Part shown: piece after piece, positions 1 to 63,715 of the stretch
Layout: each line of letters starts with the position of its first letter
Position numbering within the stretch: position 1 is the first letter of the stretch
Assembly (NCBI GenBank): GCA_951406725.2
Contig: OX597824.1
Location: 88,536,001-88,600,000, forward strand
Reading direction: 5' to 3'
DNA length: 64,000 nucleotides
Source of the DNA: Octopus vulgaris
Taxonomy: Eukaryota
Translations under genes and position numbers: made by a program
The notes under the pieces: model-generated
What the model saw: only the letters and a program-made list of their open reading frames with translations
What the model was told of the DNA's origin: nothing
Databases searched by the model: none

Positions 1-393
1 CAACTTTTCTTTCAAAAATAGGTTTATGCAGTAATAGAAACTTTTGTATTGTAATCGAATTCTTTATTCTTGGGTAAAAAGATAAGCGATCCTCAACCTT
101 TGTTTATTTTTGCTTATAAAAACATTCAGCATCTAAAGAATTCTGAACTTGGATCATTAACCACATCTTTTCTGTAGAATATATCCCTTTATTATTTAGA
201 AATGCTTGAAACAGAATGCAGTTATCTTGATAAATTGCATTCTGTTGCCAACAAATTTTGACTTTGCTTATTCTGATCTACATATCCCGAGACAGTTTTA
301 TTTTAATTAGGCACAAAGGCTCGTTATTTTAGTAGATCTAGAAACAAGATCATGTGACATCCATGCTTTTCTAATAGTATTAAACAGTGAAGT

Positions 394-803
394 GATATTT
401 TACTATATGGCTCAGAAACCTGGACGTTATCAAAGAAGCTTGAGAGGCAGTTGGATGGAACTCATACTCGCCTCCTTATGAGAACTCAAAATCTCTCGTG
501 GAAGCGTCATCCAACCAAAGTACAAATATATGGGAAATTACCACCTCTATCATCTCTTGTGAAAGGTAGAAGAGTCCAGTTTGCTGGACGTTGTAGAGCT
601 GAAAACGAGGTAATTTCTACTCTTCTCCTCTGGAAGCTATCTGCTCGCGATACCAGAGGGCGCACACGCTCCTACTCTGATGTAATCTCCAGGGATACAG
701 GCATCCAGCAACAGGACCTCTGTAATGCTATGATGGACCGTGAAGTCTGGCGTAACATAGTAAATTCCATTGTCTCGACCACGGCCGAACAATGATGATG
801 ATG
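394..803 (+). mobile_element. RTE-clade LINE 3' fragment
   Basis: Translates ILLYGSETWTLSKKLERQLDG...AMMDREVWR; ends in a (TGA)n tail. Confidence 0.8.
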
Positions 804-16441: not shown

Positions 16442-16985
16442 GTGTTTTGCAAATTTTTTTACAGCAAATTTGTCCACTCTTAATATTCTGATTAACTAAA
16501 TAGTAAAATAGTAATCAAAAAAAAAAAAATTTATAGTTATTATTTGGGATGTGGATGAAAAACTAGAGTACAAAGCAAAATGCCTTGAAATATTTTGTTT
16601 AAACTTTTTTACATTTTGGATTCAAATTCCAGTACACTTTGCCTTTCTGTTTGATGAATTTTGGCCTTCTAATGTAATTTATAACATTTGTCGATTGTGA
16701 TGCATTGTTATTTAGGCTAATAGACAATACCTATTGGCTTTGCATCCTTTTTTGATTCTTGTAATTGATATTCAGCTTATACAAATTGGTGTATGGAAGG
16801 AAATATCAGGAGAGAGAGAGAGAGGCTGTTGTTAGGAGAGGCAAAGTATGAGTGCACAACCCAGACAAAAAAAATCACCAAGCTGTTGATAGTGTCCAGA
16901 ATGGCTGTGGATGAGAGTGGTGTACAGTTGGCTAGTATAGAGAAGCAGAGGTCATTTTAATATTCTCTTCAACATTTAAGTTTAA

Positions 16986-17036
16986 TTTGTCAAAATATTT
17001 TCGCCGCTTTAAGACCGCGACCTGTTCACTGACAAA
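16986..17036 (-). ncRNA. Minimal type I hammerhead ribozyme-like motif, G3-C8 variant
   Basis: Minus strand: UUUGUCA GUGAACA G GUCGC-loop-GCGGC GAA AAUAUU U UGACAAA. Perfect 7-bp stem I, 5-bp stem II, palindromic stem III. Confidence 0.6.
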
Positions 17037-17051
17037 AATCCGTGCTGCATT

Positions 17052-17102
17052 TTTGCCAGTGAACAGGTTGCGGTCTTAAAGCGACGAAAATATTTTGACA
17101 AA
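17052..17102 (+). ncRNA. Minimal hammerhead-like motif, G3-C8 variant (sense copy)
   Basis: UUUGCCA GUGAACA G GUUGC-loop-GCGAC GAA AAUAUU U UGACAAA; one stem I mismatch. Confidence 0.55.
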
Positions 17103-17464
17103 TTAAACTTAAATGTTGAAGTGAATCGAACGGTTTTTGTGTGTTTCTTAAATGGCTTACAAACACCTTCCACGCTGTAATTGTTTTTGTTTCAGCACAC
17201 GATCTCAGATCAAATCACTTGCTATGCAAGTACATCTCCATAATTATTCTAATATTAAATTAATATAATTTACTTTGTCATGAATATTACCTGGTTAGTA
17301 TTTCATTACATGATCTATTTTTAACCATCTCTTATATAAAACTTTTGTTTTTACCTGTATTAATACTTAATTATAATTGTCATTTTAAGACAAAAAATGG
17401 TGCTGTTTGAACATTAAGGAACATGCTATATGTTTGAAAATGTTTTTCTTTCAGAAGAGTCCAG

Positions 17465-55884
<38,420 letters not shown>

Positions 55885-61739: not shown

Positions 61740-62844
61740 AAACTAAAACAAAGTACCCAGTATATGCTGTAAAGTGGTTGGCATTAAGAAGGGTATCCAG
61801 CCATAGAAACCAAGCCAAAGCAGACACACTATGTGGACCCGAGGCTCAGTTTTCAGACCTTCATATGGACATGTTTGGTGCTTTGTGAGTGCCATGCCCA
61901 TTTACTTCAAAGTGCTTGAGATGTTAACAATTACCAACAGCTTTTGTCTGTACAAGTCCAGTCTGCTTGTTATCGTCAACTGTAGTCATTTGCTATTTGG
62001 CCTCTGACTGTCTAAAGAATTCTGTCTTCTCTTGAAGACATTTTTGCAAGCCTGTCACTTCTAAAGCAATCATAGCTACCATGCCTCTGTAGGTGGGAGC
62101 CAAGAAGGTTTTTTAAATGAATTGACCAATTTTCTAAAAACTTCTTAGCTGATCCCCTTTTGATTCTAATTGATGACCCAGAATTTTTGCCTGATAGGTC
62201 TTTGATGGATTTCCAGGCAAGATGGTGTTTTTTACTAATGTGCTCTTTGGATAGTTTGCTAATTTTGCCATTGATAAAGTTTGATAAATTTTGCCGTTGG
62301 ACGTTATCAAAGAAGCTTGAGAGGCGGTTGGATAGAACTTACATGGCCTTTAAACTCTAGTGTTTGACCCGAGCAAAAATAATTTGTTTTACACCTATTA
62401 CACTATTTATTTTATTTTTATTTTTATTTTTGCTCGGGTCAAACCCTTTAGTTTGACCACATTTTCAATGTGTGAATTAATTGATTCGCTTCTATTTCAA
62501 TTAATAAAAATCTGTCATTAGTCTATAGTAGTAAAAACGAATTGGAGTGTTCGTTTGGCTTTCTGGTCCATAGATTCATACCCCTGGATGTCTCCCTCTA
62601 CACAGAACACAAATATGGAACCAAAGTAGCACCATGTTCCTGTACAACTCTGGTCCACCGGCATAAATTCAGACCTGTAAAATGCAAACTTACAAATATA
62701 ACAATGAAAGAAGCTGGATACAGGGTAAAAAATTATATTTAACAGATTCAAAAATTGGATGACAGCCTAGGAGAAGAATTATCATTTTTGGAATTCCTTG
62801 AATCCATTCTCCAAGAAGAAATATTTCTTTTCTTTTCTTTTTTT

Positions 62845-63082: not shown

Positions 63083-63715
63083 CGACGGCCTTCTTTCAGT
63101 TTCCGTCTATCAAATCCACTCACAAGGCTTTGGTTGGCCCAAAGCTGCCAAGCAGTGGGACTGAACCCGGAACCATGTGGCTGGTAAGCAAGCCACTTAC
63201 CACACAGCCACTCCTGCCACTACGTTCTGAGTTCAAATTCCGCCGAGGTCGACTTTGCCTTTCATCCTTTCGGGGTCGATTAAACAAGTACCAGTTACGC
63301 ACTGGCGTCGATATACTCGACTTAATCCGTTCGTCTGTCCTTGTTTGTCCTCTCTGTGTTTGGCCCCTTGTGGGTAGTAAAGAAATAGGTATTTCGTCTG
63401 CTGCTACGTTCTGAGTTCAAATTCCGCCGAGGTCGACTTTGCCCTTCATCCTTTCGGGGGGTCGATTAAATAAGTACCAGTTACGCAATGGGGTCGATAT
63501 AATAGACTTAATCCGTTTATTTGTCCTTGTTTGTCCTCTCTGTGTTTAGCCCCTTTCGTCTGTCTTTACGTTCTGGGTTCAAATTCCGCTGAGGTCGACT
63601 TTGCCCTTCATTCTTTCGGAGTCGATAAATTAAGTACCAGTTGCGTTCTGAGGTCGATCTAATCGACTGGACCCCTCCCCCGAAATTTCGTGCCTTGTGC
63701 CTAGAGTAGAAAAGA
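62845..63715. mobile_element. SINE-A(-) 62845-63218 fused head-to-head with three tandem SINE-B(+) units
   Basis: Junction cagccactcctgcc|actacgttctgagttcaaattccgccgagg. Confidence 0.8.

Follow-up and report, generated by a model that had tools for sequence, protein, structure and literature searches.

Four short elements lying in the introns of, or just upstream of, a plus-strand PAK-type kinase gene of Octopus vulgaris raise two connected questions: what kind of element they are, and whether the changes at positions 3 and 8 of their hammerhead-like cores reflect selection for RNA self-cleavage. A preliminary description of the window, i.e. the whole 64-kb stretch of DNA analysed here, had read them as variant minimal hammerhead ribozymes with a co-varying 3-8 pair.

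The window was searched with a descriptor consisting of N-Y-G-A-N-N-A, an optional insert, stem II, GAAA, a palindrome, UH and stem I, with positions 3 and 8 left unconstrained. Five minimal type I hammerhead motifs were found (Table 1), all on the minus strand, all with the type I topology (stem I, box, stem II, GAAA, UH) and all with a Watson-Crick pair at 3-8. The boxes GUGAACA, CCGACGA and UUGAAAA had previously been noted in a hammerhead layout, and this observation is upheld by the five motifs, since dinucleotide shuffles (n = 60) gave 0.15 matches per window at a score of at least 9 and 0.05 when 3-8 had to pair. None of the five motifs is a canonical CUGANGA hammerhead, and CUGANGA occurs in the window only as three loose text matches. 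When position 6 was freed in the descriptor no further motif appeared in the window, and the Rfam covariance models gave no hammerhead match in it at E ≤ 10; the Rfam miRNA matches in the window were hairpin and microsatellite artefacts below the gathering score. Stem III is palindromic and unstable in the window motifs, and E1, E3 and E4 have an extra base after A9 together with G10.1-C11.1, two traits common but not invariable among minimal PLE hammerheads, of which E2 has neither. Each of the four ranges originally assigned to the elements contains an intact motif, but two of them also include damaged plus-strand copies.

Table 1 Elements, hammerhead motifs and host exons in the 64-kb window (positions are those of the window)
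Feature	Coordinates	Strand	Motif	Predicted cut	Remarks
PAK-type kinase gene exons, host context	17438..50342	+			PBD near 17490-17590; kinase exons near 43780 and 50000; only these exons located
E1 5′-inverted, truncated pLTR copy	16962..17039	-	16986-17036, intact, G3-C8	between 16993 and 16992	box GUGAACA 17029-17023, inserted G, 5-bp stem II, palindrome AUAU, 7-bp stem I
E1 main copy with 3′ tail	17040..17240	+	17052-17102, damaged		C.A mismatch in stem I
E2 copy	39529..39603	-	39562-39599, intact, C3-C4-G8 (CCGACGA)	between 39566 and 39565	no insert, A10.1-U11.1, palindrome CUCnGAG
E2 inverted copy	39753..39835	-	39788-39825, intact, CCGACGA	between 39792 and 39791	
E2 main copy	39830..39985	+	39841-39878, G5A (CCAACGA)		predicted dead core; tail running to (TA)n
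E3 pLTR end	44365..44492	-	44455-44491, U3-A8 (UUGAAAA)	between 44458 and 44457	inserted G, 6-bp stem II, palindrome AU, 3-bp stem I
E3 inverted 3′ piece	44491..44609	+			without hammerhead
E4 solo pLTR end	53880..54089	-	53985-54019, C3-C4-G8 (CCGACGA)	between 53989 and 53988	between (TA)n tracts; inserted A, 4-bp stem II, palindrome CG

The elements are left-over 3′ ends (pseudo-LTRs, pLTRs) of four Penelope-like retrotransposon (PLE) families with hundreds to thousands of copies each. Walking 5′ from individual copies led in all four families to a GIY-YIG (+RT) Penelope-like ORF 0.6–2 kb upstream on the same strand, which bears out the PLE association suspected in the preliminary description; the lack of any such association, which was to count against that reading, did not materialise. 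The 5′ extension is graded among copies and reaches into the PLE ORF. Since each family is tied to such an upstream ORF, the elements are 5′-truncated pLTR ends. For E1, three loci (L252, L253 and L255) have an RT/GIY-YIG ORF whose end lies about 1 kb upstream, and L254 is colinear; all four have the head-to-head inverted arrangement known from PLEs, and L252 encodes a YVDD RT plus the endonuclease (EN). For E2, a GIY-YIG ORF with a CxCX5C motif ends about 1.3 kb upstream in L209, while L206 and L208 are colinear into the ORF end. A GIY-YIG ORF lies about 0.6 kb upstream of E3 in 3 of 30 pattern loci, and a broken RT+GIY-YIG ORF lies 1.5–2 kb upstream of E4 in L212–L214, which represent one local duplication, and in the independent locus L215. 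Of the E2 and E3 parents only the endonuclease/C-terminal part of the ORF was seen. The families show 5′ truncation, adjacent inverted copies and (TA)n targets, all of which are PLE traits (PMC8557442). The linker preceding EN is of the CxCX5C type in the E2 parent (L209), a motif of the Hydra clade (PMC8557442); the E1, E3 and E4 parents carry a CX2-5CxxC linker as in the Neptune/Nematis clades. No upstream same-strand PLE ORF was found in the first 75 loci examined. Copies of E1–E4 near GIY-YIG ORFs of other families (L080, L092, L104, L108, L123, L127, L140) were regarded as independent insertions and not as linkage, and L251, with three direct E1 copies, turned out to be a satellite without an ORF. 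A GIY-YIG search of the genome returned 6,136 candidates, among them an intact 781-aa RT+GIY-YIG ORF that is followed on the same strand by a U3-A8 motif in 12 of the 30 GIY-YIG loci listed. This PLE family (L106, L144, L145 and many of the GIY-YIG candidates) is young, has many uninterrupted 781-codon ORFs and is the best candidate for biochemical work.

First-look searches, with 515 (E1), 292 (E2), 409 (E3) and 1,027 (E4) candidates, identified each element as a dispersed repeat. Exact patterns with N at positions 3 and 8, covering families E1, E3 and E4 in the 2.8-Gb genome, gave 5,551, 2,429 and 12,304 matches, respectively, that is 20,284 for the three families, and reversed-pattern controls gave none. 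The genome thus holds the large under-catalogued variant set that had been predicted. The companion claim that a CUGANGA descriptor would miss the elements is correct for the window motifs; in the E4 family, about 23 of the first 100 listed copies have the canonical CUGANGA box. Chance matches in AT-rich, repeat-rich DNA are a negligible explanation: the relaxed descriptor does produce 5.2 false matches per Mb, but the excess of window motifs over shuffles, their fixed place behind PLE ORFs and the thousands of copies against empty reversed-pattern controls refute it.

Most copies are 130–250 nt long and often adjoin an inverted copy and lie beside (TA)n, and sequence runs bearing the names of four organisms contain E1. 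Contigs from four runs, compared with L017:1480-1730, had neither pile-ups of starts or ends nor a joint at the predicted cut, a result neutral for cleavage because contigs would not display such ends. At one site (L219:6100-9991 and L220:1-1000; C2, about 17.908–17.913 Mb) 30 E1 units of 166 bp, each with a G3-C8 motif, follow one another head-to-tail, and there is a smaller E1 tandem array in locus L019. These arrays, together with the short and mostly solo copies, would suit independent, non-autonomous families, either retrozymes or SINE/MITE-like elements, mobile as short units or as circles. As an origin for the elements this is very improbable and largely refuted by the ORF-linked copies with their graded 5′ extension, and no window copy is arranged head-to-tail. 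Within the PLE reading, the 166-bp array may be a retrozyme-like derivative of a PLE pLTR, with arrays as a derived offshoot.

Positions 3 and 8 pair with each other in the active hammerhead conformation. In the octopus genome, ORF-linked lineages hold all four Watson-Crick versions of this pair, C3-G8, U3-A8, G3-C8 and A3-U8. Among 14 motif groups, delimited by eye, 13 are paired at 3-8 in comparison to 19 of 62 matches (31%) in shuffles (binomial p about 2e-6); due to the about five chance matches expected per Mb, some singleton groups may be false. Descriptor matches in 255 loci are paired in 236 of 239 cases; these cases are not independent, as many of the loci had been retrieved with the motifs themselves and some share sequence. 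On an endonuclease tree of the own genome (18 rows; 8 of 15 inner branches unsupported and long branches for E2 and E4) the 3-8 state changed at least four times. E1 and E3, whose motifs have G3-C8 and U3-A8, respectively, form a sister pair by their endonucleases (65/135 identical, clade support 100/100); as the inserted G and a GUYGC stem II are also common to both motifs, the earlier statement that the four elements are unrelated in sequence does not hold for this pair. A first metagenome scan for relatives found nothing. A second scan recovered 26 loci related to the E1 ORF, seven of them with a downstream motif, five C3-G8 and two U3-A8; four of these motifs were found by the descriptor and three by eye (L256 with C9, L258 with U15.1-A16.1, L271 with AAAA). 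No downstream motif was found in the other 19, many of which lack enough 3′ sequence. With these relatives included, the E1/E3 clade again requires at least four changes of the 3-8 state, with the E1/E3 change shared by the two trees. L256 and L258 come from other organisms, and L256 combines its C at position 9 with U3-A8.

Individual copies behave differently. The 3-8 states of the first 100 copies listed per family, scored by eye for E1, E4 and E3, were 96 G3-C8 and 4 unpaired by single changes in E1, 96 paired and 4 unpaired in E4, and 90 U3-A8, 8 C3.A8, 1 U3.G8 and 1 C3-G8 in E3 (91 paired). Therefore, the earlier claim that changes at 3 and 8 are always compensatory is valid between families but not between copies. 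The excess of C3.A8 over U3.G8 in E3 could be an amplified mismatched subfamily. Four E3 copies on C1 with one common loop II (28058689, 73059804, 112663158, 131232124) differ at 3-8 (U.G, U-A, C-G and C.A) and may have been caught in the middle of a swap. Judged from these sequences, 3-8 swaps are repeated and paired at the level of lineages, while single copies decay one change at a time, a pattern to be expected under selection on master elements. We infer selection for catalysis at the 3-8 pair, and the parent elements likely still use their hammerheads as self-cutting RNAs.

Further cores in the genome widen this picture. The A3-U8 version belongs to a PLE lineage with the box AUGAAUA, a 2-bp stem II and a CCGG palindrome, present at two loci of which one is decayed (L096:2046-2078, oriented, and L124). 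Two more ORF-linked families have a C3-G8 core with U.U at 10.1-11.1 (L107) and a U3-A8 core read partly by eye (L109). In L103 and L129 a motif with an extra U beside C3 (8-nt box) and a 6-nt palindrome lies about 230 nt after the EN stop; it was scored C-G on the tree and left out of the 14 groups. An abundant related family (L126, L133, L166, L168, L172, L183) has U at position 6 (CUGUCGA/CUGUAGA), which is expected to lower activity. A U3-A8 family (L026, L094, L190) has the palindromes CGCG, CAUG and CUAG, self-complementary throughout. One unpaired counter-example, a repeated GUGUAAA match with G3.A8 (L167, L180), reached a score of 8–9 with position 6 free and is probably a chance match. 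No motif was found behind the own-genome EN types L076–L079, L091, L092, L097, L114, L125, L132 and L142.

How such minimal motifs could cut is suggested by predicted folding. In E3 and E4 the loop has 2 nt and stem III cannot close alone. A double hammerhead of E1 or E2 lies 11–12 kcal/mol below two monomers, and for two adjacent units of the 166-bp array it reaches −43.3 in comparison to −33.5 kcal/mol for two monomers, close to the free minimum of −46.5 kcal/mol. Two strands of E3 or E4 gain no energy from the double fold over two open monomers, and in all five isolated motifs the free cofold minimum is 1.6–16.8 kcal/mol below the double-hammerhead fold. We consider it likely that the four elements are 5′-truncated PLE 3′ ends whose motif self-cleaves the parent tandem transcript as a double hammerhead, probably assisted by protein. 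Two pLTR copies in one transcript would pair their palindromes to form stem III and exchange their stem I strands, cutting would release a unit-length element RNA, and the element's own protein would help cleavage. Selection would then act on the master elements, and inserted copies, those of the window included, would mostly be passive by-products that decay by single changes. Position 8 works through its 2′-OH, which is held by the 3-8 pair; therefore, a double swap should keep partial activity. Consistent with this, an engineered C3G/G8C swap partly rescues cleavage in the Anolis Poseidon element PAc (Frangieh et al. 2024, PMC11167929; here and below, statements on cited papers refer to the parts of each source that were available). 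The Anolis hammerhead cleaves together with protein (PMC11167929), and minimal hammerheads have low activity in vitro (PMC4209133). The lower free cofold minimum fits both this low activity and the protein need of the Anolis element. Points against the mechanism are the stem I of E3 with only 3 bp and the lack of G10.1-C11.1 in E2; U4C, the change in the C3-C4-G8 cores, reduces activity in vitro (PMC3088659). Two findings on the Anolis element also count against it, namely the unaffected insertion of hammerhead mutants in vitro and the lack of RNA-seq reads ending at the cleavage site (PMC11167929).

As the main rival to self-cleavage, the fold could be conserved for a signalling role of the RNA in the PLE RNP, such as binding of protein, dimerisation or choice of the template, with cleavage absent or incidental. 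Hammerhead mutants of the Anolis element leave insertion in vitro unaffected (PMC11167929). The weak in vitro activity of minimal hammerheads (PMC4209133), the A6U, U.U and inserted-U cores of other families of this genome and the C3.A8 pairs in 8 of 100 listed E3 copies would likewise suit a mere signal. However, even distantly related PLE lineages have kept G5, the GAAA box, the UH triplet and the 3-8 pair, and the Anolis PLE hammerhead does cleave when protein is present (PMC11167929). We therefore regard the signal reading as rather unlikely and retain self-cleavage of the parent transcripts as the preferred interpretation.

This interpretation concerns the parent elements and not the inserted copies in the window. 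The E1 main copy and its inverted copy pair in a 78-bp fold-back. With 150 nt of flank the mean hammerhead pair probability is 0.000 for E1 and both E2 copies, because the adjacent inverted copy forms a long hairpin, 0.63 for E3 and 0.34 for E4. The earlier statement that all four elements fold as hammerheads is thus adequate for the isolated motif, but not for E1 and E2 in their surroundings. All five intact motifs are antisense to the PAK-type gene, while both sense-strand copies (17052-17102 and 39841-39878) are damaged. With E1 and E2 locked in fold-backs and the intact copies antisense to the host gene, the window copies are probably inert insertions. Recruitment by the host as intronic ribozymes that regulate the PAK-type gene, suggested by the position of the copies within or just before it, is highly improbable given the same orientation and fold-backs and the fact that the window copies are ordinary family members. 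The damage of both sense-strand copies could reflect selection against cutting of the pre-mRNA, yet the numbers are tiny and both copies lie in fold-backs. The window contains no PLE ORF. Two short ORFs at 391-795 (+) and 62012-62338 (-) have no Pfam match; they resemble fragments of LINEs (RTE-type). Tandem 62–63 bp and 184–186 bp units of common interspersed repeats occur at 22823-23037, 47688-48047, 51734-52099 and 63220-63555, and no hammerhead motif was found in them.

PLE hammerheads cut poorly alone and could be dispensed with for insertion in vitro, which puts their role in vivo in question (PMC4209133, PMC11167929). If the active fold is selected, compensatory 3-8 swaps that recur from one PLE lineage to another are what one would expect, and the E1 (G3-C8)/E3 (U3-A8) sister pair and the intact 781-aa U3-A8 family offer ready natural test substrates. 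CUGANGA descriptors and Rfam undercount hammerheads in this genome by many thousands; PLE families reported as “lacking” hammerheads may therefore deserve a second look. More tentatively, and with considerable doubt, we speculate that the 3-8 pair is freely and repeatedly swapped in PLEs. The genome would then hold working natural ribozymes of all four versions, and the G3-C8 family with more than 5,500 copies would have spawned a 166-nt tandem retrozyme that makes circles by means of a double G3-C8 hammerhead, with family-specific palindromes and stem I strands serving as barcodes that limit dimer cleavage to the element's own RNA. If true, such free swapping would be evolutionary evidence that catalysis by PLE hammerheads is selected in vivo although it is dispensable in vitro.

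In comparison with known systems, much of the architecture is familiar. Minimal type I hammerheads of metazoan PLEs were already described by Cervera and de la Peña (2014, PMC4209133), and ours share with them the type I topology without a stable helix III, the palindrome at 15.2-16.2, the pLTR location, the mostly solo truncated copies and, in E1, E3 and E4, the extra base after A9 with G10.1-C11.1. That study also used a descriptor with the U3-A8 core on Schistosoma PLEs, with about 1,300 matches. Different from it are E2, with A10.1-U11.1, no insert and a 7-nt palindrome, and the G3-C8, A3-U8 and C4 cores, which were not found in its available text; the searched part of its supplement has no octopus entry. 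Natural U3-A8, U4C, U10.1-U11.1, U15.1-A16.1 and position-6 changes were reported by Perreault et al. (2011, PMC3088659), in rare examples and with no G3-C8 or A3-U8 in the part available, in contrast to the high-copy family cores found here. Thus, minimal palindromic PLE hammerheads, the insert after A9, solo truncated copies and natural U3-A8, U4C and U.U are already known. For G3-C8 the available literature gave engineered variants only (PMC3884650, PMC8495972, PMC11167929), and no natural A3-U8 and no hammerhead study of octopus were found in it; the main text of the 2026 O. vulgaris repeat annotation, as far as available, never mentions ribozymes (PMC13282606). The closest study, Lünse 2017, as well as Przybilski 2007, Arkhipova 2017, Seehafer 2011 and Hammann 2012, lay outside the scope of this search and may list A3-U8 or G3-C8, so that the novelty of natural G3-C8 and A3-U8 cores is unproven. 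The comparison also draws on the available parts of PMC6765202, PMC6155905, PMC10085705, PMC7229834 and PMC7761336. PLE-associated variants that cleave as dimers were described by Lünse, Weinberg and Breaker (2017, as cited in PMC6765202 and PMC7761336); they share the short palindromic stem III and the PLE association with our elements, while dimer cleavage was found for theirs and is proposed for ours. The Anolis element PAc likewise has its hammerhead in a PLE pLTR (PMC11167929), but its G3-C8 is an engineered rescue, whereas here G3-C8 is a natural core with at least 5,551 copies. Finally, non-LTR retrozymes, tandem units of about 150–450 bp with a type I hammerhead, have been proposed to derive from PLE pLTRs (PMC7229834; bioRxiv 10.64898/2026.07.22.740005). 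The window copies are solo or inverted, whereas the 166-bp E1 array (L219/L220) fits the retrozyme layout and combines it with a minimal G3-C8 hammerhead.
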